Positions 10,464-63,562 are shown, counted from the stretch's first letter. The stretch: 64,000 nt of DNA from Coxiellaceae bacterium (GCA_031263815.1 JAISFD010000022.1:5320-69319), one strand, 5' to 3'. Made by a program: numbers and translations. The notes: generated by a model not told the origin, from the letters alone.

Positions 10464-10479
10464 TGTTTTTGCTCCAGTT

Positions 10480-10553: not shown

Positions 10554-10593
10554 ACTATAGGGTTTAAGGAGGAATATCATATATAAATAAATC

Positions 10594-19741: not shown

Positions 19742-20097
19742 GGGGGCGACCGGTTTCGACGTAGATTGCGAAGCTCTAGGTGCATGCCGAGGATGTAGCC
19801 TTACTCGTAAAATATGACTATAAACGAAATAAACGCCAATGATGAAGAAGCGTTAGCAGTTGCCTAAAACCAACTGATCCGTGTTCAAGATGTACTTATG
19901 CGTCTTGTTTTACGGTCATTTACATAAGTCTATATTTATGGTGTGTTTGATACCATAACTATTAGTAATAAATCAAACTAGTTTGTTGTTATTCTTGTTC
20001 GTCAGTGAACAACTTACGAAATTGAAGATGAACTATGCATGTAGTACCAAAAGTAGAGAATTTGCGGACGCGGGTTCAATTCCCGCCGCCTCCACCA
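19742..20097 (+). ncRNA. ssrA: tmRNA (SsrA)
   Basis: The 5-prime GGGGGCG pairs with the 3-prime CGCCTCC-A-CCA (G3:U70), and the T-arm is GGGTTCAATTCCC. The tag reading frame at 19835-19867 (GCC AAT GAT GAA GAA GCG TTA GCA GTT GCC TAA) encodes ANDEEALAVA. Confidence 0.9.
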
Positions 20098-23966: not shown

Positions 23967-25424
23967 TTACATGTCAGATTGTTTCTGATGTAACTCTTTA
24001 TTTAGAGCAAGTGTGGAATAGAGCCACCATAACATTACAATTACGAATATACCAGCAATTGCGGGAGCTAAATCTAGTAGAGTTAGACCACTAAATATTG
24101 TAAGCAATACTTGCTGAATAAATGCTCCACTCCCTTTACCAAAGCGCATCCCGATCATTTCAGCAGCAGCTTTACCTTTAGTTTTTAGATCATCATCTAA
24201 TGGTATATATGCCATCTCTTTAGTAGCATCGAATAGTGTATGTTTAGTTGACCTTGCTGCAATATTATGAACAGCGCCAAAATACACAGCCATAGCTAAT
24301 GCTGGCATACTAACACTAAACACCAAAGCAATGTCTTTGAAGACCATAAACAAGAAAAACATTACACCTACAATCGCAAATATAATAGGAGTAATTAATG
24401 CCGTAGTTTTCCACTTACATGCACGCACAATATAAACTCCGAGTAAAGCAAAAGCGATACTGAGAATCGAAATATAGAGGTTAATGTTACTCATAAAATA
24501 ATGGATAAGATTGGCGTCACCACCAAAATGAATTTCGATAGATTTTTTCCATACGCCTTCTGCTAAATTAATTGAAATGTTATAGCATAGAAGTAACGAG
24601 GTAATTAGCAGTATAGGTTTAGATGATGCAATAACTTTCAAGCTTTCGGTAAAACTAATCTTAGGTTTTTTGGTTTTGACAATGCCACCAATATTACTAC
24701 GACTGTTAAATTTTTCTATACCAATAACTTTACCTAGTAGTACGATGCAAATCGACAATAAAACTCCACCGACTATCAGAGAAATAGTCACATTATTTAG
24801 AGTTGGTTGCCAGTCAGTGCCATGGGTTACAAAGGATTTAGATAAAGTCCCGGCAAACATCATACCAAATTGAGCAGTTAGGCCGAAAAGAGGATAAAAT
24901 CGTTTTGATTCTTCAATGCTTGTAATATGGTTGACGGCTTGCCACAAAGAAATGGAGAGCATGATAGTCACCCACATCTCAGAGAAGACATAAAATAGAC
25001 AAAAGTCCCAACTACTTATTATAGTGAAAATATATTTCATAGCGGGTAATTGTTCTTGAGTTTCAGGGCTAATATAGATAGATAGTGCTTCATGATTTGG
25101 ATAGAACACAAGAGCGAATAGAGCAAAATAGGAGACAAAAAACCATGTCATAACATGAAAGAGTTTGCTCCGACTAAAAATATCTGCCAGTTTAATATAG
25201 GCAAACATAAATAAGATAGAAAGAGGTGTCACTAACCATAGTTTAATAGCGCTAATAGCTTCTGTATGCAAATGATGAATAACTAGTGCATCTTTTGATA
25301 TTTTTAACATAGTGTGAATATAGGTGATGATAATCATCATCGCAGCGAGACACATAAATTTTGATAACTCATGTTTATGAATAGGAACGACCTTTTCTTG
25401 TAACCATATAGTTAGTTTTTTCAT
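23967..25424 (-). CDS. tlc: ATP/ADP translocase-type nucleotide transporter (NTT/Tlc family), paralog 1
   Basis: Polytopic ~485-aa protein with family-typical blocks HITSIEESKRFYPLFG and EMAYIPLDDDLKTKGKAAAEMIGMRFGKGSGAF. I prefer the internal ATG (MKKLTIW) at 25424 over 25490. Confidence 0.9.
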   Translation of the reverse strand: MKKLTIWLQEKVVPIHKHELSKFMCLAAMMIIITYIHTMLKISKDALVIHHLHTEAISAIKLWLVTPLSILFMFAYIKLADIFSRSKLFHVMTWFFVSYFALFALVFYPNHEALSIYISPETQEQLPAMKYIFTIISSWDFCLFYVFSEMWVTIMLSISLWQAVNHITSIEESKRFYPLFGLTAQFGMMFAGTLSKSFVTHGTDWQPTLNNVTISLIVGGVLLSICIVLLGKVIGIEKFNSRSNIGGIVKTKKPKISFTESLKVIASSKPILLITSLLLCYNISINLAEGVWKKSIEIHFGGDANLIHYFMSNINLYISILSIAFALLGVYIVRACKWKTTALITPIIFAIVGVMFFLFMVFKDIALVFSVSMPALAMAVYFGAVHNIAARSTKHTLFDATKEMAYIPLDDDLKTKGKAAAEMIGMRFGKGSGAFIQQVLLTIFSGLTLLDLAPAIAGIFVIVMLWWLYSTLALNKELHQKQSDM

Positions 25425-25738
25425 ACTACTTTCTCTTCTATTTTTTGATCTATTTTTATTATTTTTAGTATAGCACATGTAAAAATTCAAGTGGTGTTAT
25501 AGTATTAATTATTTTTTAAATTGTAAAGATTTGATTGCAACATTATATTTTCGGCTACAATTACTGATTTAGTATAGTAATTAACATTAGAAATATCCTT
25601 AACATTTCCTTAATAATTTTCTCTAAGAAATCATAACTATCTGAAATTTTCCGAATAAAGAACTTAGAAGTCAATGTTCGAGGGATAACCAGATAAGACT
25701 TGATTATTTAAAAATGATAAGATTTGTAACTAAGGACC

Positions 25739-30676: not shown

Positions 30677-31690
30677 ATGCACAAAGTCCTATCATTAATT
30701 TCTGGTGGTTTAGATTCTTTTCTTGCGACAAAACTAATTCTTATGCAAGGAGTATATGTTGAAGGAATCAACTTTTTTACTGGATTCAGTGGAGATCATG
30801 AGTATTGTTTTGACCATTCTACCAAAGGGAGCCATGGCGCGCGCTGGGTATGTGATCAATTAGGAATAAAATTGCATGTTGTAAATGTTGTAGATCTTTT
30901 TAAGCCTATATTACTGCAGCCAAAATATGGTTATGGTGCGAATCTTAATCCTTGTCTTGACTGTAAATTGTTTATGATTGGAGAAGCGAAAACCTGGATG
31001 GAAAAATGTGGATTTGATTTTTTGATTTCTGGTGAGGTTTTAGGTCAGCGGCCAAAATCTCAACGGAAAGATACTTTGCCTTTCGCATCTAAAATTACTT
31101 CGGATTTAATCGTGCGTCCTCTTTCAGCTAAACTTTTACCACCAACATTACCTGAAAGGGCAGGATGGATTAATAGAGAATTGCTTTATAGCATTAGTGG
31201 ACGAGGACGCAAATTTCAACTTAACCTTGCTCAAAAATTTGGGTTTAAAAAAATTCCTCAACCGAGTGGTGGCTGTCTCTTAACCGATTCAGGTTTTTGT
31301 CGGAGATTACAAGATCTGTGGGATCACCACTTAGATCACGATTATGACTTGAATGATATTTTACTACTGCGCTTGGGAAGACATTTGAGAGTTAACTCTA
31401 AGTTAAAAGTTGTTGTTGGTAGAGATGAAGGGGAAAATAACTTCCTTGAAAATTTTTCAAGTAAATATACTTTATTACAACCTATTAATTTTCCTGGCGC
31501 AACAGTTTTAGTTGATGGTAAAGTTGACCAGAGTAACTCGAATCTTTTGGCATGTCTTAGTGCCTATTTTAGTAAAGGACGAAATGCCAGTGAGGTTAAG
31601 GTATTGGTGCGCTATCCTCAAGACCTTGCTCAGAATGTTTTAGTTGTATCAGCAACACCGAATGAAGTTTTAAGCAAGTGGTATATATAG
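30677..31690 (+). CDS. PP-loop ATP pyrophosphatase superfamily protein (ThiI/MnmA-like, possible RNA thiolation enzyme)
   Basis: PP-loop SGGLDS at the N-terminus, NPCLDCK cysteine pair, and a ThiI-like SGEVLGQRPKSQ block. There is no THUMP or rhodanese domain. The exact function is not recognised. Confidence 0.55.
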   Translation: MHKVLSLISGGLDSFLATKLILMQGVYVEGINFFTGFSGDHEYCFDHSTKGSHGARWVCDQLGIKLHVVNVVDLFKPILLQPKYGYGANLNPCLDCKLFMIGEAKTWMEKCGFDFLISGEVLGQRPKSQRKDTLPFASKITSDLIVRPLSAKLLPPTLPERAGWINRELLYSISGRGRKFQLNLAQKFGFKKIPQPSGGCLLTDSGFCRRLQDLWDHHLDHDYDLNDILLLRLGRHLRVNSKLKVVVGRDEGENNFLENFSSKYTLLQPINFPGATVLVDGKVDQSNSNLLACLSAYFSKGRNASEVKVLVRYPQDLAQNVLVVSATPNEVLSKWYI

Positions 31691-31751: not shown

Positions 31752-33392
<1,641 letters not shown>

Positions 33393-33408: not shown

Positions 33409-34221
33409 ATGAAGCTATGTGGTTTCGAAATTGGTAATGACAAACCGCTTTTTTTAATTGCTGGACCATGTGTTATTGAAAGCGAGAAGATTGCACTTGA
33501 GTCGGCGTTTTTTTTGAAAGAAGTTACTGTCCGTTTAAAAGTAAATTTCATCTATAAAACTTCTTTTGAAAAAGCTAATCGTACATCGATGAATAGTTAC
33601 TCTGGACCAGGATTTACTGATGGCTTAAGAATTTTAAGAAAAATTAAGGAAGAGGTTAAAGTACCTATTTTAACCGATGTCCATGAATATACACCGTATG
33701 ATGAAGTAGTTGCAGTCGTTGATGTGTTACAAACTCCAGCATTTTTATGTCGTCAAACTAGTTTTATTAAAAAAGTTATGGGGCAAAATAAACCAGTTAA
33801 TATCAAAAAAGGACAATTTTTATCGCCATGGGAGATGAAAAACGTAGTAGAGAAAGCTAGTTCTACTGGTAATAAACAAATCATGGTTTGTGAACGTGGG
33901 GTAACATTTGGTTATAATAATTTAGTAGTCGATATGCGTTCGCTTGAAATCATGAAAGAAACTCACTGCCCTGTTATTTTCGATGCTGGACATTCGGTGC
34001 AGTTTCCAGGAAGTACTGGTTCCAGTAGCGGTGGAAAACGAGAATTTATTCCTGTTCTTGCGAGAGCAGCGACTGCCGTTGGAATTGCTGGACTATTTCT
34101 TGAAACTCATCCTAACCCTGAGCGGGCATTATGTGACGGTCCCAATATGTTACCAATTGCTAAGATAGAGTCTTTATTAATTACCCTCCAAAAAATTGAT
34201 CGTGCGGTTAAAACGCTTTAG
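33409..34221 (+). CDS. kdsA: 3-deoxy-8-phosphooctulonate (KDO8P) synthase
   Basis: [22 protein letters not shown], and DAGHSVQ motifs. Confidence 0.95.
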
Positions 34222-34299: not shown

Positions 34300-35604
<1,305 letters not shown>

Positions 35605-35635
35605 GGAATTGAAAAATCTGTCCCAGATTAACTTT

Positions 35636-35905
35636 ATGAAAGTATTATTAGGTATACTAATAGTAGTGGTTATAGCATTACAGTATCGCCTTTGGTTTGC
35701 TGATGATGGCATCATTCATGCTTGGCGATTAAACAAGGCAATTTATGCTCAACAAGCAAAAAATGAAGATATAGTTAAACGTAATACTGTTTTAATTGAG
35801 GAAATTAAGTCACTAAAAGAAGGAGGAGATGCTATTGAAAACTGTGCTCGTAATGATCTTGGTATGGTAAAAAAAGGAGAGATTTTTTACCAAGTGGTAA
35901 AATGA
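35636..35905 (+). CDS. ftsB: Cell division protein FtsB
   Basis: MKVLLGILIVVVIALQYRLWF...ARNDLGMVKKGEIFYQVV parallels E. coli FtsB. Conserved position after eno. Confidence 0.85.
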   Translation: MKVLLGILIVVVIALQYRLWFADDGIIHAWRLNKAIYAQQAKNEDIVKRNTVLIEEIKSLKEGGDAIENCARNDLGMVKKGEIFYQVVK

Positions 35906-35911
35906 GTTTTT

Positions 35912-36943
35912 ATGCAAACACTACTTCCTACTAGAATAGTTGGTCCAATTAAAATTATCAGTAATGATTTTTCTGCTGATTCTAGAGTTCCACTTGCTAC
36001 TTTTGAGAAGCCTCTATGGTTTTCAGTAGAGCGTGGAGCTCGAGTAACAAGAAAATCTGGGGGTATAAGGACAGTGTTAGTGCAAGATTGTATGACACGA
36101 TCAATATTAGTCGAGGCTGAAAATGCTATTTATGCATTTGAAGTAGTCAATAGCTTAAAAGGGTTTCGATCTGAATTAGAAAAAATCGCTGTTAAAAGTA
36201 GTAGATTTACACAACTTAAAGATTGGCAAACTCAAATTGTAGCTAACCTGATTTATATTCGTTTTACTTTTACTACTGGTGGAGCTGCAGGTCATAATAT
36301 GTCAACAAAAGCAGCTGAGATGTTGCAACAGTGGCTATTAGATAAATTTCCTAAGTTGAAATATATCTCAATTTCTGGAAATTATTGTGTCGATAAAAAA
36401 AATTCAGCAGTAAATGGTATTTTGGGTAGAGGTAAATTTGTAATTGCTGAAGCTTTGATTCCTCGTGAACTTTGTCAGAAAGAATTGAAAGCTAGTCCAG
36501 AGAAAATCGTTGATTTAAATATTAAAAAGAATCTTCTTGGCTCAATTATTTCTGGTGGAGTAAGAACTGCTAATGCCCATTTTGCTAACATGCTTTTAGC
36601 ATTTTATTTAGCTATGGGCCAAGATGCAGCGAATATTGTTGAAGGATCCCAAGGATTTACTTATGCAGAAGTACGCAAAGATGATTTATATTTTTCAGTA
36701 ACTTTGCCCAATATCATTATTGGTGCAATAGGTAGCAATAAAGATCTAGATTGGGTAAAGGAAAATTTAAGAATATTGGGAGTTTTAAAGCCGAATGACT
36801 ATAATTTTAATGCGCGTGCCCTTGCGTTGATAGCGGCAGCAGTAGTTTTATGTGGAGAGATTTCTTTAATGGCTGCACAAACAAATCCTGGGGAACTTAT
36901 GCGAAGTCATTTAGCAATTGAAAGAAAAAACGTAATTAAGTAA
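35912..36943 (+). CDS. HMG-CoA reductase, class-I-like, short soluble form
   Basis: Blocks matching the class I catalytic core: PLATFEKPLWFS (Glu), SGNYCVDKKNSAVNGILGRGK (DKK Lys), GQDAANIVEGS (Asp), GELMRSHL (His), ANAHFAN. It lacks the N-domain and the membrane anchor. TTGGAAGHNM replaces the usual TGDAMGMNM. Confidence 0.75.
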   Translation: MQTLLPTRIVGPIKIISNDFSADSRVPLATFEKPLWFSVERGARVTRKSGGIRTVLVQDCMTRSILVEAENAIYAFEVVNSLKGFRSELEKIAVKSSRFTQLKDWQTQIVANLIYIRFTFTTGGAAGHNMSTKAAEMLQQWLLDKFPKLKYISISGNYCVDKKNSAVNGILGRGKFVIAEALIPRELCQKELKASPEKIVDLNIKKNLLGSIISGGVRTANAHFANMLLAFYLAMGQDAANIVEGSQGFTYAEVRKDDLYFSVTLPNIIIGAIGSNKDLDWVKENLRILGVLKPNDYNFNARALALIAAAVVLCGEISLMAAQTNPGELMRSHLAIERKNVIK

Positions 36944-36955
36944 TGGGGGATGAAT

Positions 36956-37519
36956 ATGACAAAAATTTTACTTGTGGCCGCATCTACACGGCAAGATTCA
37001 TCTAACAAAAAACTTATTAATCTTATCGCAAAATTAAGTACCCAACAAAAAATTGATGTTGAAGTTCTGGATTTTGCTAACTATAGGGCTCCACTTTATG
37101 ATGGAGATCTTGAAGATAAATTTGGTATACCTGAAGTGGTTCGAGCTTTTGTTGCAAAACTTCAAGATGCTTACGGTTTAATTTTATCTTCACCAGAATA
37201 TAATTTCTCTACTCCAGGAACTTTAAAAAGTCTTATCGATTGGATTTCACGTGTAAGACCTATGCCATGGGTAAGATATCCTATTATGCTATGTTCTGCC
37301 TCACCATCTTTGGTTGGTGGTAATAGAGGACTATTGCATACAGCAGTAATCTTGCAATGTTGCTGTAATGCCGATATTTTTCCTCCAATGTTTTCTTTGG
37401 CAAATAGCTATGAGGCGTTTACTAATGATGGTTCGTTAAAAGATAAGAATCTTGAACAAAAGTTAAGCAAAAACATTGTTGGGTTCGTAAATTTCGTAAA
37501 AAAACTAGCTCGCACATAA
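36956..37519 (+). CDS. NAD(P)H-dependent FMN reductase family protein
   Basis: Flavodoxin-like fold start MTKILLVAASTRQDSSNKKL and the SPEYNFSTPGTLKSLIDW block. Confidence 0.7.
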   Translation: MTKILLVAASTRQDSSNKKLINLIAKLSTQQKIDVEVLDFANYRAPLYDGDLEDKFGIPEVVRAFVAKLQDAYGLILSSPEYNFSTPGTLKSLIDWISRVRPMPWVRYPIMLCSASPSLVGGNRGLLHTAVILQCCCNADIFPPMFSLANSYEAFTNDGSLKDKNLEQKLSKNIVGFVNFVKKLART

Positions 37520-37529
37520 GTATTTCGTG

Positions 37530-37865
37530 CTATAGTGCAGATAAAGGATGTCCACCGAGTAAATGTAGATGTAAATGATACACTACTTGTCCACCATCAC
37601 GATTACAATTAATCAAAACTCGATAACCATTGGCATCAATTTTGAATTCTCTTGCTAATTTTTGCGTCACTAAAATCATATTACCAATTAGATCTCTATC
37701 TTCTGGTATTAAATCATTCATGGTAGCTATATGTTTATGTGGAATAATTAATTTATGTTGTGGTGCTCTGGGGTTAATATCATCAAAAGCGATTATTTTA
37801 TCATCTTGATAAATAATATTCGCTGGTATTATACCACTAGCAATTTTGCAGAAAATACAATCCAT
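37530..37865 (-). CDS. hinT: HIT-family nucleotide-binding protein (HinT-like)
   Basis: CIFCKI N-terminus and histidine triad HLHLHLLGG. Confidence 0.9.
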   Translation of the reverse strand: MDCIFCKIASGIIPANIIYQDDKIIAFDDINPRAPQHKLIIPHKHIATMNDLIPEDRDLIGNMILVTQKLAREFKIDANGYRVLINCNRDGGQVVYHLHLHLLGGHPLSAL

Positions 37866-37961
37866 ACTATCTAAATTGATTATTTAATATTAATACCTAC
37901 AATATGTTATATTGTAATTATATTATTCAATTATGTATACTAAAAAGTTGAAGATCATTCT

Positions 37962-37980
37962 TCATGGTTAATAACCATGA
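37962..37980. promoter_or_regulatory. Perfect 9-1-9 palindrome in the intergenic region upstream of the GltD-like/PFOR operon (candidate operator)
   Basis: TCATGGTTA-A-TAACCATGA at 37962-37980, ~160 nt upstream of ATG 38140. There is no other support. Confidence 0.3.
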
Positions 37981-38139
37981 CCATTAAAAGAGGAATTCTG
38001 GAAAAACTTTATTTCTGTAAACAGAGTGTTAAAAAATTGTATCCAAACGCGGTCAAGTTAGTAGCAATTAGTAGACTTCCTATTCAGATGCTTTTATAAT
38101 TTAATTTGTAGACGGATTATTCGATAGTTTATTGCAAAA

Positions 38140-39735
38140 ATGGAGTTTTTAGGCATGATTAATAAATCGCGAAAAGTTGCTGTTTGTGTCAAAAAAACAC
38201 CCCCCTGTAATAATATTTGCCCTGCAGGAGAAGATATTCAACATTGGCTAAATTTAGCTAAAGAACAAAAATATCATGAAGCATGGCAAGTTATTTTGCA
38301 AAGTAATCCTTTCCCAGCTATTCATGGTAGGGTTTGTTATCATTATTGTGAAACTAGGTGTAATCGAATACAACACGATTCAACTGTAGGAATTCATTGT
38401 ATTGAACGGTTTCTGGGAGATATGGCTCTAAGAGAGAAATGGGCCGCCCCAGCATTAAATACTAATACTAAAAAAGAGATTCTAATTGTAGGAGCTGGTC
38501 CAGCTGGTTTAACTGCAGCTTATTATTTACGTTTGTTTGGATACAATGTTACGATTTACGAGTCTCTACCTCAAGCCGGTGGTATGATGTTAATAGGTAT
38601 CCCAGCTTACCGTCTTCCACGTGAGATTCTATTTGGAGAGATTAATCGTGTTTTGAATACTGGAATAAAAATTGAATATAACCACAAAGTTCAGGATGTA
38701 ATTAAAGAAAAAGACGATCATGGTTTTGATGCGGTATTTTTAGCTATTGGTGCCCATTTGGGAAAAGATATCGCTATTCAAATAGAGGATCCATGCATAG
38801 TTATGGATGCTATTGACTATCTACGCGGAATTGCTCTAGGAAGATCAACTGCTCTTGGATCACGTTTAGTAGTCTATGGTGGTGGTAATACCGCAATAGA
38901 TGTGGCTCGAAGTGCTAAACGTTTGGGTGTATCTGACGTTAATATTGTTTACCATCGTACCCGTGAGAGAATGTCGGCTTTCAATCGTGAAATAGAAGCT
39001 GCTCTGGCTGAAGGCATTAAATTTACTTTTTTACGCAGTATTATAGCTCTCAACCACAATACTTTAACTTTAAGTATTAACGAGATTGATAACAAAGGGC
39101 GGCCCAAAAATACTGGGAAGATTGAAACACTAGAAATTGATGCTTTGATTTTTGCTTTAGGTCAAATTCCAGATTCTGAATTTTTGCGTAAAATTCCTGA
39201 AGTTGGATTACAGCCGGCTGGAGTAATAACTATAGATGATTTATTTATAACTGGATATCGTGGTATTTTTGCTGGTGGTGATATGATTCCATTTGATCGA
39301 AGTATTACTGCAGCTGTAGGTCACGGTAGACGTGCGGCTTATTGTATTGATTCATATTTGGGTCATACTCATACTTCTTTTGGTGAATTGCCTTTTAGTA
39401 AAGAGTTGGCGTCTTTCGACAAATTACATATTAGTGATGAAAAGTCGCAAAAAACTATGGAAAAAATGCTGCAAGCGGGGACACGAGTCAAATCTTTTTC
39501 CGAAGTTATTCCGAGTTGTACTCAAAATGAAGTTTTATATGAATCAAAGCGTTGTTTTTCATGTGGCAATTGTTTTGGTTGTGGTAAGTGTTATGCAGTT
39601 TGTCCTGTAACAGCGATAACACATTCAAAGCTAGATGGTAAAGTTACTGAAATTAATCCGGCAAAATGTATTGATTGTAGTCAATGTTTTAAAATTTGTC
39701 CATGTGGTGCTATCAATATGATAGATAGAAAATAA
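38140..39735 (+). CDS. GltD-like NAD(P)H-dependent Fe-S flavoprotein oxidoreductase with a C-terminal 2x[4Fe-4S] ferredoxin domain
   Basis: N-terminal Cys cluster (CNNICPAG...CYHYCETRCNR). Two dinucleotide folds (IVGAGPAGLTAAYYL; VVYGGGNTAIDVARSA). C-terminal CFSCGNCFGCGKCYAVCP and CIDCSQCFKICPCGA. Confidence 0.8.
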   Translation: MEFLGMINKSRKVAVCVKKTPPCNNICPAGEDIQHWLNLAKEQKYHEAWQVILQSNPFPAIHGRVCYHYCETRCNRIQHDSTVGIHCIERFLGDMALREKWAAPALNTNTKKEILIVGAGPAGLTAAYYLRLFGYNVTIYESLPQAGGMMLIGIPAYRLPREILFGEINRVLNTGIKIEYNHKVQDVIKEKDDHGFDAVFLAIGAHLGKDIAIQIEDPCIVMDAIDYLRGIALGRSTALGSRLVVYGGGNTAIDVARSAKRLGVSDVNIVYHRTRERMSAFNREIEAALAEGIKFTFLRSIIALNHNTLTLSINEIDNKGRPKNTGKIETLEIDALIFALGQIPDSEFLRKIPEVGLQPAGVITIDDLFITGYRGIFAGGDMIPFDRSITAAVGHGRRAAYCIDSYLGHTHTSFGELPFSKELASFDKLHISDEKSQKTMEKMLQAGTRVKSFSEVIPSCTQNEVLYESKRCFSCGNCFGCGKCYAVCPVTAITHSKLDGKVTEINPAKCIDCSQCFKICPCGAINMIDRK

Positions 39736-39754
39736 AAGTTATTATGAGGTAGTT

Positions 39755-42700
39755 ATGAATGCAGAAATGAAGATAATGGATGGTAATGAAGCGGTAGCAT
39801 ATATTGCTTACCGTGTTACAGAAATTAATGCAATTTATCCGATCACTCCTTCTACTCCTATGGGGGAATTTGCTGATCAATGGGCATCTGATGGGGTAAA
39901 GAATATTTGGAATACTGTCCCACAAGTAGTTGAAATGCAGAGTGAGGGTGGTGCCGCTGGTGTATTACATGGAGCTTTACAAGGTGGTGCTTTAGCAACG
40001 ACTTATACAGCTTCTCAGGGACTTCTTTTGATGATTCCTAATATGTATAAAATTGCTGGTGAACTAACCTCAACTGTGATTCATGTGGCATCTCGTTCTT
40101 TAGCATGTCAAGGGTTATCTATTTTTGGTGATCATAGTGATGTGATGGGAATTCGTGATACTGGTTTTGTAATGTTAGCTTCAGGTAGCGTCCAGGAGGC
40201 TCATGATTTAGCACTAATTGCTCATGCATCGACATTAGAAGCAAGGATACCATTTATTCATTTTTTTGAAGGGTTTCGAGTTAGCCATGAGATTAATAAA
40301 ATAGATCTTATAACTGATGAACAAATCCGCACTATGATCGATGAAGATCTGGTATTAGCCCATCGACGTCGTGCTTTAAGCCCTGAATGTCCATGTATCC
40401 GTGGCACATCGCAAAATCCAGATGTATATTTTCAAGGGCGAGAAACTGTTAACCCCTTTTATTTGAAGGTACCAAGTATTGTTGAAAAATATATGGATAG
40501 ATTAGCTAATCTCACTGGACGAAAATATTCCTTAATGAACTATTATGGAGATAAAGCAGCAGAAAAAGTTATTATTATTATGGGATCTGCTTCCAAGGTG
40601 GTTATCGAAACAGTTGCCGAACTTAATGCGCAAGGAGAAAAAGTTGGAGTAATACAGGTTTATTTATATCGTCCATTCCCTGTAGATCGGTTTATGCAAG
40701 TCTTACCTACGAGTGTTAAGGTGATAGCAGTGTTAGATCGTACTAAAGAACCTGGATCTCTTGGTGAGCCTTTATATCAAGATGTATTAACAGCATTGGC
40801 TGAAATAATAAATCAAGGTAAAGTAATTTTTAATAGCGGCTATCCCAAAGTTGTTGGCGGACGCTATGGTTTATCATCTAAAGAGTTCACCCCAGCGATG
40901 GCTAAAGGAGTATTTGATAACCTCAAACAAGATTTTCCCAAAAATCATTTCACTATTGGGATCAAAGATGATGTAACTAATAGCAATTTAGACTATGACG
41001 TAAATTTCTCTATTAAAGATTCTCAACATAAGTGTTTTATTTTTTATGGTTTAGGTTCAGATGGCACTATAGGGGCTAATAAAAACACCATAAAAATTAT
41101 TGGCCAAGAAACTCCATTATATGTGCAAGGTTATTTTGTTTATGATTCAAAAAAATCTGGATCCAAAACAGTATCACATCTACGGTTTTCATCCAAACCA
41201 ATCCAAGCTCCGTACCTAATTACAACTGCTGATTTTATTGCATGTCATCAGTTTAACTTTATCGAATCTGAGACTATCTTAGACAATGCAATTACTGGCG
41301 CTACATTTTTATTAAATTCTCCATTTGGCCCCAATGAAATTTGGGATAATTTACCCAGAGTTGTAGTGGAGAAAATTCTTGCTAAAAAGATGAAATTTTA
41401 TGTTATTGATGCCTATAAAGTTGCAGCGCAGACCGGGATGGGCGTAAGAATTAATACCATTATGCAAACCTGTTTCTTTGCCATTTCGGGTATTTTACCT
41501 CGTGAAGAAGCTATTACTAAGATTAAGGATGCTATTGTTAAAACCTATAAGAAGAAAGGGGAAGAAGTAATTAAGAAAAATTTTGCAGCGGTTGATCAAA
41601 CTTTAGATAATCTTTTTGCAGTAAAACTAATAGATGAAGTATCAATTAAAGCTCATGATTTAGCTCCAACAGTGAGTAGTAAGGCTCCAGAATTTGTTCA
41701 AAAAGTTACCGTGGTAATGATGAAAGATCAGGGAGATAATTTGCCGGTTAGTGCTTTACCGATCGATGGTACTTATCCAAGTGGTACCACTCAGTGGGAA
41801 AAACGTAATGTCTCAGCCGAAGTTGCGGAGTGGAATCCTGATTTATGTATTCAATGTGGACAATGCAGTTTGATATGCCCTCATGGAGTAATCCGTGCTA
41901 AACATTTTACTCAGGATAGTCTGCAAAATGCTCCAGCCGATTTTAAGACTGCCAAATGCCGAGCTAAAGAATTTGCTAATGATCAATTCAGATTACAAGT
42001 TTATCTTGAAGATTGTACTGGATGTGGTTTGTGTAATGAAGTATGTCCAGCCGTTAGTAAAGAGAATCATGAAATTAAAGCTATTATGATTACACCTAAA
42101 GCTTCTAGATTGACTATAGAACGTAGAAATATCGAATTTTTTGCAAGTTTAATTGATGAAGATAAACGAGAAATTGATAACTCTAATGTAAGGGGAGTGC
42201 AATATTTACCTCCTTACTTTGAATTCTCTGGTGCCTGCTCTGGGTGCGGTGAAACGCCTTATATTAAATTAGTTAGTCAATTATTTGGTGACAGAATGTT
42301 AGTGGCTAATGCAACTGGTTGTTCTTCGATTTATGGTGGTAATTTACCTACAACGCCGTGGACTTTTGATAATTCTGGACGTGGTCCTGCTTGGTCAAAT
42401 TCATTATTTGAAGATAATGCTGAATTTGGTCTTGGTTTTAGATTAGCCACGGATAAACAACAAGTACTTGCTTTAGAATTACTCCAAGAATTTTCTGAAC
42501 AAATAGATAACGATCTAGTAGCCGCAGTCATTCAGGGAACGAAAGAAGACGATGAAAAAAATATTTTTATTCAACGTCAACGTCTTATAGAACTAAAAGA
42601 GAAACTAACTAAAATGCGGGATCCACGGATTAAACATTTATTAATGTTATTAGAATATCTAGTTAAGCGTAGTATCTGGATAATAGGTGGTGATGGTTGG

Positions 42701-43318
42701 GCCTATGATATCGGTTATGGTGGTGTAGATCATGTATTAGCTAGTAATTATGATGTGAATATTTTGGTATTAGATACAGAAGTATATTCTAATACAGGTG
42801 GTCAAGCTTCCAAAGCTACTCCCCGGGGGGCAGCTGCTAAATTTGTCAATTCTGGTAAATCCTTAGCTCGTAAAGATTTAGGGATGATAGCTATGACATA
42901 CAATAATGTTTATGTAGCTCAAGTAGCACTAGGAGCAAATCCTGCTCAAACTATACGAGCAATTATTGAGGCCGAGAGTTATCATGGACCTTCATTAATT
43001 ATCGCTTATAGCCATTGTATAGCTCATGGATATGATTTACGCCATGGAATTATGCAACAAAAACTAGCTATTAATAGTGGTTTTTGGCCTCTTTATCGCT
43101 ATCATCCTGATCGCCTTAAACAAGGTCTAAATCCTTTGCAATTAGACTCTAAAGAACCGAGTATTCCGGTACGAGATTTTGCATACAATGAATCCCGTTT
43201 TAAGGTTCTAGCATCTCAACATCCAGAGCATGCTGAAGAATTACTAAAGCAATTGCAAGAGGATGTAACTAAGCGCTGGCAAATGTACGTTAATATGTCT
43301 CTAGCCAAGTACAATTAA
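39755..43318 (+). CDS. nifJ: Pyruvate:ferredoxin (flavodoxin) oxidoreductase, single-chain NifJ/YdbK type
   Basis: 1187 aa. Two ferredoxin motifs (CIQCGQCSLICPHG, CTGCGLCNEVCPA) and a TPP-binding block IIGGDGWAYDIGYGG...DTEVYSNTGGQ. It starts 19 nt after the GltD-like stop. Confidence 0.95.
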   Translation: MNAEMKIMDGNEAVAYIAYRVTEINAIYPITPSTPMGEFADQWASDGVKNIWNTVPQVVEMQSEGGAAGVLHGALQGGALATTYTASQGLLLMIPNMYKIAGELTSTVIHVASRSLACQGLSIFGDHSDVMGIRDTGFVMLASGSVQEAHDLALIAHASTLEARIPFIHFFEGFRVSHEINKIDLITDEQIRTMIDEDLVLAHRRRALSPECPCIRGTSQNPDVYFQGRETVNPFYLKVPSIVEKYMDRLANLTGRKYSLMNYYGDKAAEKVIIIMGSASKVVIETVAELNAQGEKVGVIQVYLYRPFPVDRFMQVLPTSVKVIAVLDRTKEPGSLGEPLYQDVLTALAEIINQGKVIFNSGYPKVVGGRYGLSSKEFTPAMAKGVFDNLKQDFPKNHFTIGIKDDVTNSNLDYDVNFSIKDSQHKCFIFYGLGSDGTIGANKNTIKIIGQETPLYVQGYFVYDSKKSGSKTVSHLRFSSKPIQAPYLITTADFIACHQFNFIESETILDNAITGATFLLNSPFGPNEIWDNLPRVVVEKILAKKMKFYVIDAYKVAAQTGMGVRINTIMQTCFFAISGILPREEAITKIKDAIVKTYKKKGEEVIKKNFAAVDQTLDNLFAVKLIDEVSIKAHDLAPTVSSKAPEFVQKVTVVMMKDQGDNLPVSALPIDGTYPSGTTQWEKRNVSAEVAEWNPDLCIQCGQCSLICPHGVIRAKHFTQDSLQNAPADFKTAKCRAKEFANDQFRLQVYLEDCTGCGLCNEVCPAVSKENHEIKAIMITPKASRLTIERRNIEFFASLIDEDKREIDNSNVRGVQYLPPYFEFSGACSGCGETPYIKLVSQLFGDRMLVANATGCSSIYGGNLPTTPWTFDNSGRGPAWSNSLFEDNAEFGLGFRLATDKQQVLALELLQEFSEQIDNDLVAAVIQGTKEDDEKNIFIQRQRLIELKEKLTKMRDPRIKHLLMLLEYLVKRSIWIIGGDGWAYDIGYGGVDHVLASNYDVNILVLDTEVYSNTGGQASKATPRGAAAKFVNSGKSLARKDLGMIAMTYNNVYVAQVALGANPAQTIRAIIEAESYHGPSLIIAYSHCIAHGYDLRHGIMQQKLAINSGFWPLYRYHPDRLKQGLNPLQLDSKEPSIPVRDFAYNESRFKVLASQHPEHAEELLKQLQEDVTKRWQMYVNMSLAKYN

Positions 43319-43352
43319 TGTAGTTAGTTTGCTAAATTACAAAGATGCTAAA

Positions 43353-44783
43353 TTATTTGAGTTTGGTAGCTAGACGATTTAGGGCAAAAATGGAATAAAA
43401 CCACCCGAGAGAGATAATTATAAAGATCGTAAAAATTATAGGCGATAGATCGAGGAGAGTTAGTGCTGGAAATAATGCAAATAACCCTTGTTGCAGGAAA
43501 GCTCCACTACCTTTGCCAAATCTCATACCTACAATTTCAGCAGCTGCTTTACCTTTAGTTTTCAGATCATCATCTAAAGGTATATAAATCATTTCTTTAG
43601 TGGGATCAAATATCGCGTGTTTTAAAGAACGGGAACAAACATTGTAAACGGCTCCTAAATACACTGCTACTATTATTATTGATGATTGCAAAGTAAGTAG
43701 CCATGTGATCTCTCTAAATAGTATTGATAAGAAGAATATTCCACCTGTAAGCAAAATAATTATTGGAGTAATTAAAGCAGCGATTTTCCACTTAAGAAGA
43801 CGTAAGACATGAGCCCCAATAAATGTACTCGTGATACTAACTATTGAGATACATATATCTATTTTACTAATAAAGTGTTGAATATAATTCGCATTACTTG
43901 TAAAAAATATCTCAATAGATTTTTTCCAAACTCCTTCGACTATATTGAGTGAGATATTGTAACAAAGTAGTAATGATGTAATTAAAAGCATGACTTTAGA
44001 AGAACTAATATATTTTAAGCTTTCTTTAAAACTAATCTTGTTCTTTGATTTAAAATGACCTCTTTTTAAGTTAAAAGTATTAACACCAATTATCTTTTCT
44101 AAAAAAAATAGACAAATAGTTATTATTATTCCAGCTATGACGATTGAAATCGTAATATTATTCAATGTTGATTGCCAATCAGCGGCATATTTTGCTGCAT
44201 AATTAGTAGATAAAATTCCAGCGATCATTTTACCTAATCCTGCAAAGGTACCAAAAAGAGGATAGAACCTTTTGGATTCCTCAATAGAGGTTATATGATT
44301 TGCAGTTTGCCAAAAAGAGATTGAAAACATAATGACAACCCAGCCTTCAGAAAATACGTAAAACAAAGTGTAATGCCAATTACTTACTATTCTGAACAGA
44401 TATTTAAATGATGAAAGTCGTGAGACTATAGGATTGCTTATATCGATAATTAATGTCTCTCTATGCGGGTAAAGTACTAAAGCAAATAATATAAAATAAG
44501 AAATAAAAAACCAGGTAGTAATATAAAATAACTGTGCCCTTGATAATTTATCTGATAGTTTAATATACAAAAACATGAAAATTAGAGAAATCGGTAATAC
44601 CGCCCATATTTTAATTGCGCTTATAGATTCAGTACCCAAGTGAGAAATAACTAGAACATCTTTTGATATGTGCAGTATGCTATGAATATAAGCTATGGCA
44701 AAAATAAGCACTGCGGTACACAAAAACTTTGTCAATTCAACCCGTTGAATTGGGATCAACTTCTTTATTGTATGCTTATTCAT
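43353..44783 (-). CDS. tlc: ATP/ADP translocase-type nucleotide transporter (NTT/Tlc family), paralog 2
   Basis: 476 aa and colinear with the 23967..25424 product. By eye, half or more of the positions are shared, including HITSIEESKRFYPLFG and EMIYIPLDDDLKTKGKAAAEIVGMRFGKGSGAF. Confidence 0.9.
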   Translation of the reverse strand: MNKHTIKKLIPIQRVELTKFLCTAVLIFAIAYIHSILHISKDVLVISHLGTESISAIKIWAVLPISLIFMFLYIKLSDKLSRAQLFYITTWFFISYFILFALVLYPHRETLIIDISNPIVSRLSSFKYLFRIVSNWHYTLFYVFSEGWVVIMFSISFWQTANHITSIEESKRFYPLFGTFAGLGKMIAGILSTNYAAKYAADWQSTLNNITISIVIAGIIITICLFFLEKIIGVNTFNLKRGHFKSKNKISFKESLKYISSSKVMLLITSLLLCYNISLNIVEGVWKKSIEIFFTSNANYIQHFISKIDICISIVSITSTFIGAHVLRLLKWKIAALITPIIILLTGGIFFLSILFREITWLLTLQSSIIIVAVYLGAVYNVCSRSLKHAIFDPTKEMIYIPLDDDLKTKGKAAAEIVGMRFGKGSGAFLQQGLFALFPALTLLDLSPIIFTIFIIISLGWFYSIFALNRLATKLK

Positions 44784-44856
44784 AAGCTTGATCTTTTTTA
44801 GATCCTAAGAAAAATATACTGAAGTGTAACAAAATGCAATATAATGATATAAGAGA

Positions 44857-45498
44857 TTAAGCATTTATGTGAACAATCACTAATAATTTCCCCGATCTAA
44901 ATTGAATATTAACTATTTTATTCTTAAATTCGTTTGACAGAGTTAAAGTGTCGCCCATCTTAAGGAGGTAATTGTTAAGAAGATATTTGCTACCTTTTAA
45001 ACTCAGGTCTTTGACGTTTCCACCATAAGCTTGGAGGGAAAACATTTGTCCAGGGTGACCATAAATTGTAGCCGCTTTTTTTAGCAACACTATAGTCTGA
45101 TAATCATCTTTTAAGTGGGCATTGATATTTAGGCTTAAACACTTGTCTAAAAGACCCATAGAACCTAGAAGGTGATCTATGCGATTTCCACCAAGACATC
45201 CCAGAAAAGCAATTTTTTCTGGGTTTAAGTCGATAGCTTTATTCAAAGCAAGTTCAGTGTCAGTTAAATCCTTTTCAGGCGGGTGACATTCAATAGTAAC
45301 ATTATTATTGCTCCAAAATTTTAGAATTTTTTTATCGATAGAGTCACAATCTCCAATAATAAAGTTGGGAGTAATTTTATATTGCCATAAACAATTAGCT
45401 CCACTATCAGCGGCAATAATGATGCTCTTAGACATAATTTCTTGCATTACTAATCTTTTTGAAGGGGGAATACCACCAGCAACAATCACAGCTTTCAT
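44857..45498 (-). CDS. thiN: Thiamine pyrophosphokinase
   Basis: MKAVIVAGG...IIAADSGAN...IIGDCDSI...PEKDLTDTELAL...LGGNRIDHLLG matches the TPK catalytic domain. The C-terminal half is beta-rich and thiamine-binding-like. Confidence 0.75.
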   Translation of the reverse strand: MKAVIVAGGIPPSKRLVMQEIMSKSIIIAADSGANCLWQYKITPNFIIGDCDSIDKKILKFWSNNNVTIECHPPEKDLTDTELALNKAIDLNPEKIAFLGCLGGNRIDHLLGSMGLLDKCLSLNINAHLKDDYQTIVLLKKAATIYGHPGQMFSLQAYGGNVKDLSLKGSKYLLNNYLLKMGDTLTLSNEFKNKIVNIQFRSGKLLVIVHINA

Positions 45499-45566
45499 AA
45501 GAGTAATTTTACACATAACATTAAAAACGGTATAGTTAGCAACAAGAATATATTTTAAGGTTAAAT

Positions 45567-46331
45567 ATGAGAATTTTAATTAGTAATGATGATGGAGTTT
45601 ATGGTATAGGACTTAATGTTTTAGCAAATGAACTATCAAAAATCGCTGAAATAGTTGTTGTAGCGCCTGATCGAGATCGCAGTGGAGCAAGTAACTCTCT
45701 TAGTATCCAGGTTCCTGTTAGAATGCAGCAATTGCCTAATGGTTACTATAGTGTAACTGGTACACCAACAGATTGTGTACATCTAGCAATTACTGGTTTG
45801 TTTAAAACTAAATTCGATATGATTATCTCGGGAATTAATTCGGGTGCTAATCTTGGTGATGATATTCTGTATTCCGGAACAGTAGCAGCAGCGACTGAAG
45901 GGGGGATTCTAGGAATCCAATCGGTTGCTTTCTCACTTGTCAAAAGAGATTCACAAGAAAATTTTGCTACTGCTGCCGCAGTTGCTGGGCAAATTATTAC
46001 ACGTTTACAAAGGGAACCATTGCCTCGTGCAACCATTCTTAATGTTAATGTCCCTGATGTTAATCTTGAAGAACTACAAGGATTCGAACTAACCCGTTTA
46101 GGAAAACGCCATCCTGCTCAGCCGGCAATTAAAGCGCTTGATCCTCGAGGGAGCTCGATATACTGGATTGGAGCATCAGGTCTAGAAGAAGATGCTGGTC
46201 CTGGTACAGATTTCTATGCCATTAAAGAAAATAAAGTTTCTATAACACCAATTCAAATTGATATGACTAATTATAATGCTTTTGATAACATTAAAACTTG
46301 GGTATCTGGATTAGTACATTGTAGAAAATAA
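45567..46331 (+). CDS. surE: 5-prime/3-prime-nucleotidase SurE
   Basis: MRILISNDDGV...GINSGANLGDDILYSGTVAAA is canonical SurE. Confidence 0.95.
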   Translation: MRILISNDDGVYGIGLNVLANELSKIAEIVVVAPDRDRSGASNSLSIQVPVRMQQLPNGYYSVTGTPTDCVHLAITGLFKTKFDMIISGINSGANLGDDILYSGTVAAATEGGILGIQSVAFSLVKRDSQENFATAAAVAGQIITRLQREPLPRATILNVNVPDVNLEELQGFELTRLGKRHPAQPAIKALDPRGSSIYWIGASGLEEDAGPGTDFYAIKENKVSITPIQIDMTNYNAFDNIKTWVSGLVHCRK

Positions 46332-47020
46332 TGAAGCAGTTTACTAAATGTTTCTTAGGATTATTACTGATTATCTTCACTTCAAACTGTGCTAAACCAC
46401 GATTAGTTAAATTACCTCCAGTTATAGAAGGATGGCATAAATCTTCTGCACTGAAAAATGCTTATATCGTGCAAAAAATGAATACTTTATATTCTATTGC
46501 CTGGTCTTTTGGAGTAGATTATCGCCATTTAGCTACAATCAATAAGCTTAAAGCACCATATCAACTACATCCTGGTCAACACTTATATATCGCATCATCA
46601 TCTGAAAGTATAAAATATAGGCCAAAATCTGTTAATAATAAATCTTTAGCAAAATGGTTCTGGCCTGCTACTGGAAGGATCATAGCAACATTTAGTGATA
46701 AAATGGGTGGTAATAAAGGTATAGATATAAATGGAATTTATGGCCAACCAATATTTGCAAGTAATTCTGGAAGAGTTGTATATAGCGGTACAGGGATTCG
46801 TAGTTACGGTAAATTGATTATTATCAAACATAATGATGATTATTTAAGTGCCTATGCCTATAACAAGAAAATGCTAGTAGAAGAAGGGCAAGAGATTAAA
46901 GCCCACCAAAAAATAGCAGAAATGGGCTATGATAATGAAAGACATGCCTGCCTTCATTTTGAGATTAGATTATTTGGTAAACCAGTAAATCCTTTATTTT
47001 ATTTACCTAAACAACAATGA
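46331..47020 (+). CDS. nlpD: NlpD-like lipoprotein (LysM plus M23 peptidase domain)
   Basis: Lipobox FTSNC, LysM (YIVQKMNTLYSIAWSFGVDYRHLATINKL), and M23 region (GIDINGIYGQPIFAS...HFEIR). Conserved position after surE. Confidence 0.8.
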   Translation: MKQFTKCFLGLLLIIFTSNCAKPRLVKLPPVIEGWHKSSALKNAYIVQKMNTLYSIAWSFGVDYRHLATINKLKAPYQLHPGQHLYIASSSESIKYRPKSVNNKSLAKWFWPATGRIIATFSDKMGGNKGIDINGIYGQPIFASNSGRVVYSGTGIRSYGKLIIIKHNDDYLSAYAYNKKMLVEEGQEIKAHQKIAEMGYDNERHACLHFEIRLFGKPVNPLFYLPKQQ

Positions 47021-47715
47021 CGATTAATAAAATCATTTTACAACCAGCTTTTGTTTTACATGCGAGATCATATCGTGATACTAGCCTTTTAGTTGAATTG
47101 TTAACTAAACATTATGGGAGACTTACAGTAGTTGCTAGAGGCGCTCGTAGTATGAAATCACGATTGAGAGGTACTTTGGTACCATTTCTACCTTTATTAG
47201 TTACTTTTAGCGGCAAAACTGACCTTAAAACTCTACAACAAAGTGAAACCTGTGGAACTAGTTATGCTTTAAAAAACGAAACTCTGTTAAGCGGCTTTTA
47301 TTTAAATGAATTATTGATTAAATTACTACCTTATCACGAAGCTTATCCTAGCATTTATGATGCTTATCAAGATACGCTCGATATTATTGTTAAATCTCAG
47401 GAATTAGAAATCGCCCTAAGATTATTTGAAAAATGCTTACTAGCCAATTTGGGATATGGTTTACGACTAGATCGGACTAATTCTAATGAATTGATATTAG
47501 CTGGAGAACAATATAGCTTTGAGTTCGGTTATGGTTTTTATAAAGCAAAGACTGAGCATACTTATAATTTTCCTGGCAAGAGTTTATTAGCTCTTCACTG
47601 TGGAAATTTTACTGATAAGAAAGAAATACAGGATGCCAAACGGCTACTAAGAAGTATAATAGCGATACTCCTAGGCAATAAAAATTTAAAAAGTAGGGAA
47701 CTATTTAAAATTTAG
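47017..47715 (+). CDS. recO: DNA repair protein RecO
   Basis: N-terminal OB-fold block AFVLHARSYRDTSLLVELLTKHYGRLTVVARGARS. ATGA overlap with nlpD. Confidence 0.85.
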   Translation: MTINKIILQPAFVLHARSYRDTSLLVELLTKHYGRLTVVARGARSMKSRLRGTLVPFLPLLVTFSGKTDLKTLQQSETCGTSYALKNETLLSGFYLNELLIKLLPYHEAYPSIYDAYQDTLDIIVKSQELEIALRLFEKCLLANLGYGLRLDRTNSNELILAGEQYSFEFGYGFYKAKTEHTYNFPGKSLLALHCGNFTDKKEIQDAKRLLRSIIAILLGNKNLKSRELFKI

Positions 47716-60999: not shown

Positions 61000-61234
61000 T
61001 ATAATATTTATAGTAACAGTTAGTTAGTCTTAAAATCTCAATTTATTCAAATAAATACAATATATTCTAGTTATAATTAACAGACAATTAGTAATTGTTC
61101 TTAAACTATGGTATAAAGCTTTACGCAATTTAGCAATAAAAATACTCACATATATCGTCACATAACTTTGGGTGCCGAAACAGTATATTTGGTTAGGTTA
61201 TGGGATATATGGAGGCTTAACCCGAGGAGAGAAA

Positions 61235-62155: not shown

Positions 62156-62166
62156 GTCACCAAGAT

Positions 62167-63549: not shown

Positions 63550-63562
63550 ACCGGAGATAGTT

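Follow-up and report, generated by a model that had tools for sequence, protein, structure and literature searches.

Which genes took the place of ispD, ispF and truD, and by what route, in a Coxiellaceae bacterium whose interval between ftsB and surE contains seven other genes? The interval (positions 35906-45566) is part of a stretch of 64,000 nucleotides (GCA_031263815.1 JAISFD010000022.1:5320-69319), referred to below as the window. Its genes encode, in order, a short HMG-CoA reductase (HMGR), an NADPH-dependent FMN reductase, a HIT protein, a GltD-like Fe-S flavoprotein, a single-chain pyruvate:ferredoxin oxidoreductase (PFOR), an NTT-type nucleotide transporter and a thiamine pyrophosphokinase (TPK). 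The original prediction, made from the sequence of the window, held that these genes could form one coherent host-dependence/redox module, by which genes of the methylerythritol phosphate (MEP) pathway and truD had been displaced. The loss of these genes is borne out by the present analysis, but the seven genes as a set are probably not what displaced them. The locus is explained best, and with reasonable probability, by an in-place swap of one isoprenoid pathway for another, followed by gene shuffling; what pushed out the MEP genes was probably a mevalonate operon, not a seven-gene cassette.

Gene calls were based on a listing of open reading frames (ORFs) and on Pfam/NCBIfam profile scans of the window proteins, and they agree with the predicted identities and coordinates of the flanking genes and of all seven genes in between. 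The left flank consists of pyrG (31764-33392), kdsA (33409-34221), eno (34309-35604) and ftsB (35609-35905), the right flank of surE (45567-46331), nlpD (46331-47020) and recO (47017-47715, overlapping nlpD by 4 nt), all on the plus strand. The reference order on which the prediction relied, ftsB-ispD-ispF-truD-surE(umpG)-pcm-nlpD-rpoS, was checked in E. coli K-12. Related loci, designated by L numbers, were fetched with enolase (n=80, mostly from Paenibacillus and unrelated taxa, with L001-L004, L015, L062 and L066 as the informative ones) and with an alignment of the HMGR family (80 metagenomic loci, the neighbouring ORFs of which were clustered), while exact-protein look-ups provided further genomic contexts of relatives (loci after L160). 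The two flanks are indeed halves of one ancestral block, which is kept joined in E. coli and in the outgroup gammaproteobacterial metagenome-assembled genomes (MAGs) L015 (pyrG-kdsA-eno-ftsB-IspD-YgbB-TruD-PCMT-x-nlpD) and L004 (pyrG-kdsA-eno-ftsB-IspD-YgbB-..-surE-nlpD). In Pseudomonas the ftsB...rpoS block is split into two nearby pieces. The left-flank order pyrG-kdsA-eno-ftsB recurs in L001, L015, L004, L062 and L066, and the order downstream on the right is as in L167, L168 and L172.

The window thus shares with E. coli the flanking genes, their strand and their order, and in both an isoprenoid-pathway gene directly follows ftsB. In E. coli this is ispD of the MEP pathway, starting 18 nt past ftsB, whereas in the window it is a gene of the mevalonate pathway, HMGR, starting 6 nt past the ftsB stop, with six unrelated genes interposed before surE. 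The proposed absence of ispD, ispF and truD from the slot holds, as no remnant of these genes or of pcm was found in the window by tblastn (best E = 0.4). Unlike in E. coli, both pcm and rpoS are also missing at the surE-nlpD site; rpoS is kept downstream of surE in L145 and L158, and surE-nlpD-rpoS is kept in Legionella micdadei.

The sequence of this organism that was covered amounts to 73 kb, comprising the window and a continuation of ~9 kb (L171), which agrees with the window end at all of the 900 bp checked (L171 positions plus 60022 give window positions). Within it, two further MEP sites are vacant. The first extends over 5158-6998 on the plus strand, where rodZ (5158-5748) overlaps hisS (5745-6998) by 4 nt and ispG is absent from a block, ndk-rlmN-rodZ-hisS-yfgM, that otherwise matches ndk-rlmN-rodZ-ispG-hisS-yfgM of E. 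coli; the rodZ-hisS gene calls are the same on a second assembly record. The other starts at the end of the window (61172-64000, plus strand), which carries map(-)-rpsB-tsf-pyrH-frr with a decayed pyrH, and continues in L171 as frr-uppS-cdsA-bamA-skp-lpxD-fabZ-lpxA. The E. coli counterpart is pyrH-frr-dxr-uppS-cdsA-rseP-bamA, and neither dxr nor rseP is present in L171 3541-7974 (frr-uppS-cdsA-bamA). For ispD, ispF, truD, pcm, ispG, dxr, dxs and ispA no tblastn match better than E = 0.29 was obtained in the 73 kb. Three canonical MEP sites are therefore empty within otherwise collinear neighbourhoods. Since the slots of ispG and dxr are empty as well, the MEP loss at these three sites and within the 73 kb appears to be pathway-wide and not a local rearrangement.

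Two minor observations concern the same neighbourhoods. The UMP kinase gene pyrH (63042-63546; L171 3020-3524) looks like a pseudogene, with residues 5-103 in one frame, ~76 residues deleted, and residues 180-236 in another frame that has an internal stop. Its remaining ORF of 108 aa is identical in two assembly records; pyrG is intact and two NTT transporters are encoded nearby. A Peptidase_M50 ORF of 220 aa (8825-9487) may represent a reduced RseP-like protease.

The gene that directly follows ftsB (35912-36943, plus strand) encodes a short, class-I-like HMGR of 343 aa, which matches PF00368 with 267 bits over profile positions 43-367 of 368. Its catalytic residues are E32, D238 and H333 (Glu, Asp and His), none of which varies among 56 aligned homologues, and the Lys K133 in the motif GHNMSTK. 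All four line up with the motifs of the plant HMGR1 structure (PDB entry 8ecg), from which the Lys is read, and the window protein is ~45% identical to this enzyme over the aligned region. The human enzyme (1dq8), over the same query range, and the archaeal enzyme (6hr7) score almost equally. The HMG-CoA_red domain and the four catalytic residues of class I enzymes are thus present. The full-length catalytic portion is not: the score against TIGR00533 (277 bits) lies below the NCBIfam equivalog cutoff (441.8), the match begins at profile position 72, and ~95-115 N-terminal residues of the crystallised human and archaeal class I catalytic portions are without counterpart. This shortness is shared by the family as a whole, with proteins of 335-360 aa (5,763 matches). 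Judged by its sequence, the window HMGR has not been truncated but belongs to a short subfamily that is under-described. Bacterial class I HMGRs of the Streptomyces sp. CL190 type have ~350 residues and are encoded in mevalonate clusters. The family described here resembles them in size and in being encoded together with HMG-CoA synthase (HMGS), GHMP kinases, mevalonate diphosphate decarboxylase (MDD) and isopentenyl diphosphate isomerase (IDI), although for the window's subfamily no biochemically characterised member was identified. A literature search for short or 'class III' HMGRs returned nothing relevant.

The genes next to this family elsewhere were overlooked in the original prediction. 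At 56 of the 81 clustered HMGR loci, which are phylogenetically non-independent, HMGR is followed by HMGS (TIGR01835, 476 bits), a GHMP kinase, mevalonate kinase (MVK), MDD (TIGR01240) and type 1 or type 2 IDI. The HMGR family is therefore normally the first gene of a complete, canonical mevalonate operon. The conserved catalytic residues and the adjacent mevalonate genes indicate that its members are genuine pathway enzymes. At some loci one ORF of 740-785 aa encodes a fusion of HMGS with a mevalonate-kinase-like GHMP kinase (L145 11260-13530, and also L158, L116, L095, L111 and L151). Such fusions caused HMGS and the GHMP kinases to be merged in one cluster of neighbouring genes (cluster 0), and the identity of HMGS was set by NCBIfam.

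The adjacency eno-ftsB-HMGR was found at 16 related loci and at L164, with HMGR identities down to 63%, and relatives differ in how much of the mevalonate operon accompanies it. In L145 the operon occupies the interval in full, with the order eno-..-HMGR-HMGS::kinase-MVK-MDD-IDI-ftsB-surE-nlpD-..-rpoS, and in L158 the same operon runs straight into surE, with rpoS downstream. Four mevalonate genes are present in L096 (eno-ftsB-HMGR-HMGS-kinase-MVK), the HMGR cluster of which includes KPJ68203.1 of 'Coxiella sp. DG_40', and three in L098/L099 ('Gammaproteobacteria bacterium GWE2_37_16'; eno-ftsB-HMGR-HMGS-kinase). In the clade of the window (HMGR at least 65% identical), eno-ftsB-HMGR has no adjacent pathway partner. 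The relatives thus form a graded series of operon erosion, from the complete operon through partial operons to HMGR alone. A neighbour-joining tree of the HMGRs, rooted at the midpoint and built without bootstrapping, shows the window's clade as monophyletic, with L098/L099 as its sister group. Read most economically, the loci suggest that a mevalonate operon moved into the ispD/ispF interval and was broken up afterwards, the HMGR of the window being what is left of it.

In non-orthologous gene displacement in situ, an equivalent but unrelated gene set comes to lie at the position of the genes that it replaces. The slot has the corresponding features: its flanks are conserved, the displaced genes are absent within the 73 kb, and the replacement is functionally equivalent. 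The likeness lies in the replacement taking place inside an otherwise conserved neighbourhood. The present case differs in that a whole pathway with scattered loci has been replaced, and in that the operon is found at different MEP loci in different lineages. In the order of events that we infer, an ancestor with pyrG-kdsA-eno-ftsB-ispD-ispF-truD-surE-(pcm)-nlpD-rpoS would have gained a mevalonate operon (HMGR-HMGS-GHMP kinase-MVK-MDD-IDI) at the ftsB-surE site and lost ispD, ispF and truD, with ispG and dxr being lost from their own sites as well. In the window's clade the operon would then have been dispersed, leaving HMGR alone after ftsB, with which it is probably co-transcribed, like ispD in E. 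coli; the remaining mevalonate genes of this genome would lie elsewhere. The rest of the interval would have been filled piecemeal by the FMN reductase, the HIT gene, the GltD-PFOR redox unit, a paralogous NTT and a surE-linked TPK.

Several points weigh against this reconstruction. The HMGR tree on which the relationships depend has neither bootstrap support values nor an outgroup root, most of the loci are of unknown taxonomy, and the ancestral state of an ftsB-linked HMGR is a matter of parsimony. In L161 HMGR follows rplQ/rpiA, so that its linkage to ftsB is broken; in L002 unrelated genes come after ftsB; and L168 and L172 have tig-clpP-surE-nlpD-recO. The electron-transfer role proposed below for the GltD-like protein is drawn solely from domain content and conserved adjacency. 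Furthermore, no HMGS, mevalonate kinases, MDD or IDI were detected by tblastn in the window, in L171 or in ~190 kb of loci mostly from close relatives (L001-L003 and those after L160), and a complete pathway around HMGR in this clade is therefore an assumption. A 2026 review also describes Legionella as lacking a recognisable PmvK, and mostly HmgS, and calls its isoprenoid supply an open question (PMC13001223). The arrangement is not shared by Legionella micdadei, which has malic enzyme(-)-orf-surE-nlpD-rpoS.

The missing partner genes raise the possibility of an orphan HMGR that has outlived the rest of the mevalonate pathway and serves, for example, to convert host mevalonate and HMG-CoA into one another, perhaps in connection with the neighbouring PFOR system as a producer of NAD(P)H. 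In addition to the negative searches and the reported lack of PmvK and HmgS by standard criteria in Legionella (PMC13001223), the proximity of HMGR to GltD-PFOR in several clade members and the in-frame stop at codon 82 in the HMGR of L001 would fit such a role. However, the sequence covered is ~10% or less of any one genome, and in 'Coxiella sp. DG_40' and GWE2_37_16 the operon is split up, not lost. 'Ca. Centrionella anaeramoebae' is reported to have both HMGS and HMGR, in a pathway that its authors describe as intact (bioRxiv 10.64898/2026.04.11.717937). Finally, with the MEP pathway gone, the synthesis of undecaprenyl phosphate, for which uppS is present, needs another route to isopentenyl diphosphate. 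We regard an orphan enzyme as distinctly improbable. The HMGR of L001 (6900-7925) contains this single in-frame stop only, which may indicate a recent pseudogene or a sequencing error; in the same locus a 644-aa ankyrin-repeat protein (4912-6846) is encoded between ftsB and HMGR.

A different objection is that the ftsB-surE junction may simply be a breakpoint prone to recombination, HMGR having come to lie beside ftsB by chance and the MEP pathway having been lost for unrelated reasons. Relatives do differ widely in what the slot contains and in its two borders, and transposases are found near the locus in L164 and L168. Against such neutral rearrangement stands the retention of eno-ftsB-HMGR at the 16 loci and L164 down to 63% HMGR identity, as well as the presence, in this interval, of full or partial mevalonate operons that belong to distinct branches of the HMGR tree. 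Chance placement is also hard to square with the position of the operon at other loci. At 11 loci the mevalonate operon lies inside a pyrH-frr-uppS-cdsA-..-rseP-bamA block without dxr. This dxr-less block with a complete HMGR-HMGS-kinase-MVK-MDD-IDI1 operon is seen in L093, L097, L100, L108, L121, L130, L132, L140 and L160 (and in L136 and L155), and in L140 HMGR directly follows cdsA. In E. coli dxr is two genes away from the cdsA-rseP junction; in Pseudomonas it lies exactly between cdsA and rseP. At 5 further loci (L102 6917-12428, L103, L115, L125 and L151) the operon converges on xseB-ispA-ribH?-nusB-thiL-pgpA, 3-4 kb from ispA, which, unlike in E. coli, is not followed by dxs; in these loci EamA comes after pgpA, and ribH is guessed from size only. 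We therefore consider neutral rearrangement unlikely.

Altogether 32 of 62 informative loci (16 at ftsB/surE, 11 and 5) have the operon at or near a former MEP site; as the loci are non-independent and of mostly unknown taxonomy, this pattern is a lead and not a result. It raises the possibility, which we put forward tentatively, that a mevalonate operon, once gained by a gammaproteobacterium, is more likely to be kept if it landed in or beside a MEP gene. The proposed reason is a ratchet, in which an insertion that breaks the MEP pathway would make the incoming operon indispensable, whereas a redundant copy elsewhere would be lost. The ftsB-HMGR junction of the window would be one footprint of this ratchet. 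An alternative for two of the three sites is that the operon clusters functionally with genes that consume isoprenoids, such as uppS and ispA.

The swap of pathways leaves six genes of the slot to be accounted for, and it is here that the original prediction of a horizontally acquired cassette inserted between ftsB and surE has to be weighed. All seven genes do lie in one interval bounded by ancestral flanks, HMGR, HIT, GltD and PFOR occur together in L082, L084, L087, L088 and L164, and a metabolic connection is conceivable, as PFOR needs thiamine pyrophosphate (TPP) and HMGR needs NADPH. However, the seven-gene set is not found in any relative; relatives contain different subsets, which occur independently of one another (TPK in L167, GltD-PFOR beside secFD in L163, HMGR beside rplQ/rpiA in L161). 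The comparison of synteny thus supports the ancestral block, while the slot contents of relatives are too different for a cassette. The genes are arranged on both strands (+ + - + + - -). Two divergent junctions measure 274 nt and 50 nt and a convergent one 34 nt, which together with the strand pattern defines at least four transcription units; co-transcription is conceivable only for ftsB-HMGR-FMN reductase (6-nt gaps), GltD-PFOR (19 nt) and TPK-NTT (73 nt). Their GC content (0.31-0.37) and third-position GC content (0.16-0.28) are within the range of the window, which has ~35% GC throughout with neither dip nor step across 35.9-45.6 kb, and their synonymous-codon z-scores are of either sign, between -2.0 and +2.4. 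In short, the genes do not stand out from the rest of the window in composition or codon use. A Pfam scan revealed no integrase, transposase or other mobility gene among the seven, a tRNA scan found none in the slot (the closest one, at 48574, lies 3 kb beyond the interval), and flanking repeats are limited to short, low-identity two-copy pairs as expected by chance. Moreover, NTT has a paralogue elsewhere in the window. The supposition that each gene is unusual for gammaproteobacteria is not borne out either: PFOR and the GltD-like protein have gammaproteobacterial relatives, and HIT and FMN reductase are ordinary, commonplace proteins. A single acquired cassette is thus very improbable and largely refuted by synteny, and the idea of a new seven-gene host-dependence cassette is removed.

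Instead of a common origin, the related loci show three stable linkages, ftsB-HMGR(-HIT), GltD-PFOR and TPK-surE, around which the contents vary. In L167, a Coxiellaceae MAG with a surE 81% identical to that of the window, the order is eno-ftsB-TPK(-)-surE-recO (7703-10765), such that TPK is the sole gene of the slot and nlpD is missing between surE and recO; the HMGR of this genome (78% identical) is on another contig, after rplQ/rpiA. L164 has eno-ftsB-HMGR-x(-)-HIT(-)-GltD-PFOR followed by secF-secD-yajC-tgt, with no NTT, TPK or surE. In L163, a contig of 1.8 Mb, GltD-PFOR is located beside secFD, and neither ftsB nor HMGR is found within 10 kb. L162 has ftsB-HMGR-x(-)-HIT(-) followed by a giant ORF of ~3,000 aa. 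The closest marine relative, L001, shows ftsB-ankyrin protein-HMGR-x-x-FMN reductase-HIT(-), followed by an NfnA-like and NfnB-like pair that stands where the window has GltD-PFOR. On a contig of 423 kb the order is TPK(-)-fba(-)-surE-recO.

The NADPH-dependent FMN reductase (36950-37519, plus strand), identified in profile scans as a protein with a flavodoxin-like fold, starts 6 nt after HMGR and is a variable occupant, present at this locus in the window and L001 only. In other clade members an ORF of ~370-410 aa without a Pfam/NCBIfam match lies between HMGR and HIT (L089/L162 11159-12391 on the minus strand, and also L087, L088 and L164), at or near the site taken by the FMN reductase in the window and in L001. 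The HIT/HinT-like nucleotide phosphoramidase (37530-37865, minus strand), likewise identified by profile scans, also follows HMGR on the opposite strand in L082, L084, L087, L088, L089/L162, L164 and L001. The ORF listing leaves a divergent intergenic region of 274 nt (37866-38139) between HIT and the GltD-like gene, in which the promoters of both units are presumably located; the numbers of promoter-like and terminator-like sites did not exceed those expected from shuffled sequences.

The GltD/NfnB-like protein (38140-39735, plus strand; 531 aa; NF009410, 608 bits) is an NAD(P)H-binding Fe-S flavoprotein of the NfnB/GltD type, consisting of an N-terminal Fer4_20 domain, an FAD/NAD(P)-binding Pyr_redox_2 domain and a C-terminal 2x[4Fe-4S] domain with two CxxCxxCxxxCP-type motifs. 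Its best sequence matches in the Protein Data Bank are NfnA (9n5u) and chain C of 8oh5, the latter match extending over the C-terminal Fe-S part; 8oh5 is the Stn transhydrogenase complex of Sporomusa. The adjacent PFOR gene (39755-43318, plus strand) begins 19 nt downstream and encodes a single-chain enzyme of the NifJ/YdbK type, which covers positions 1-1166 of 1167 of TIGR02176 (1752 bits versus a cutoff of 911) with the domain order POR_N, PFOR_II, POR, EKR, 2x4Fe-4S, TPP_enzyme_C. Sequence identities are 76% to the PFORs of L084, L163 and L164, 60% to that of Methylolobus and 52% to E. coli YdbK, and the enzyme is therefore not foreign to gammaproteobacteria. Homologues of the GltD-like protein with about 48-49% identity are present in Thiohalomonas and Methylolobus.

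That the GltD-like protein and PFOR form a linked pair, as was predicted, is supported by their conserved adjacency. The GltD-like gene is located directly upstream of PFOR in L082, L084, L088, L163, L164 and L165, with gaps of 1-83 nt in the window, L082, L084, L088, L163, L164 and the methanotroph Methylolobus aquaticus, and the pairing is seen in three different genomic contexts, Methylolobus included. Most likely the GltD-like protein couples PFOR to NAD(P)+/NAD(P)H via its own ferredoxin domain, which would make the pair a candidate pyruvate:NAD(P)+ oxidoreductase of two components. In the pyruvate:NADP+ oxidoreductase of Euglena and Cryptosporidium and in the PFOR-flavodoxin-FqrB system of Helicobacter, PFOR is likewise paired with a flavoprotein dedicated to it that binds NAD(P)H. 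These systems employ a P450-reductase fusion or a flavodoxin relay, whereas the sequence of the window specifies a separate GltD-like protein with its own 2x[4Fe-4S] domain. The GltD/NfnB fold and the Fe-S clusters are shared with the NADP(H):ferredoxin flavoproteins of the NfnAB/StnC type. An NfnAB transhydrogenase is not apparent in the window, as there is no adjacent small subunit of the NfnA type (FAD/NAD-binding, DHODB Fe-S), in contrast to L001, where an NfnA/NfnB-type pair is present at the equivalent position. No description of a PFOR+GltD pair was found in the literature.

The last two genes of the slot are on the minus strand. The TLC/NTT nucleotide transporter (43353-44783) has a full-length TLC domain (PF03219, 408 bits, positions 13-489 of 491) and a TIGR00769 score of 353 bits, slightly below the cutoff of 387 bits. 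A second TLC/NTT paralogue, 57% identical, is encoded 20 kb away on the same strand (23967-25490). Among the loci that reach this position only the window has NTT in the slot; it is absent from L164, L167 and the 423-kb contig. TPK (44857-45516), which is divergent from surE, scores 176 bits against TIGR01378 (cutoff 76) and contains PF04263 and PF04265; the TPK of L167 is 69% identical. TPK-surE is an older linkage, kept in relatives with or without PFOR nearby. The notion that the neighbouring TPK and NTT genes point to a thiamine-related transporter was dropped, as NTT does not accompany TPK in L167 or on the 423-kb contig and has the 57% identical paralogue elsewhere in the window. No Rfam element, such as a TPP riboswitch upstream of TPK/NTT, was detected in the region 35-46.5 kb, in which two sub-threshold matches are attributable to chance.

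The gene content of the window agrees with the known or recently reported biology of this group. Coxiella burnetii and Legionella pneumophila are stated to possess genes of the mevalonate but not of the MEP pathway, the latter being the one found in Berkiella (PMC9803151). The window resembles the mevalonate users of the Legionellales (PMC9803151) in its Coxiellaceae label, its HMGR and the absence of MEP genes from the three canonical sites. 'Ca. Centrionella anaeramoebae', an anaerobic symbiont related to the Legionellales, is reported to contain PFOR, pyruvate formate-lyase, HMGS and HMGR, with a mevalonate pathway that is called intact (bioRxiv 10.64898/2026.04.11.717937), and has PFOR and HMGR in common with the window. 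It is thus already on record that Legionellales use mevalonate and that an anaerobic relative has PFOR; what seems new is the position in or beside vacated MEP sites, with HMGR, and in sister lineages the whole operon, at the former ispD/ispF site. A positional replacement of MEP genes by mevalonate genes was not found described in the literature.

An odd gene cluster is hereby explained by mostly known biology, i.e., the mevalonate route, the scavenging of nucleotides and thiamine, and PFOR in some low-oxygen lineages. The stepwise series of loci shows one essential pathway replacing another at the chromosomal address of the replaced genes themselves, a pattern that is also seen at a second MEP locus (dxr) and possibly at a third (near dxs). 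If true genome-wide, it would provide a testable rule for the fixation of redundant acquired pathways and would bear on how Legionellales make their isoprenoid precursors (PMC13001223).

Two features outside the interval were noted in addition. An ORF just upstream of pyrG (30677-31690) combines an N-terminal part resembling PP-loop tRNA-methyltransferase/ThiI proteins with a C-terminal NFACT-R_2 RNA-binding domain, and a tmRNA gene at 19742-20097 specifies the tag peptide ANDEEALAVA.

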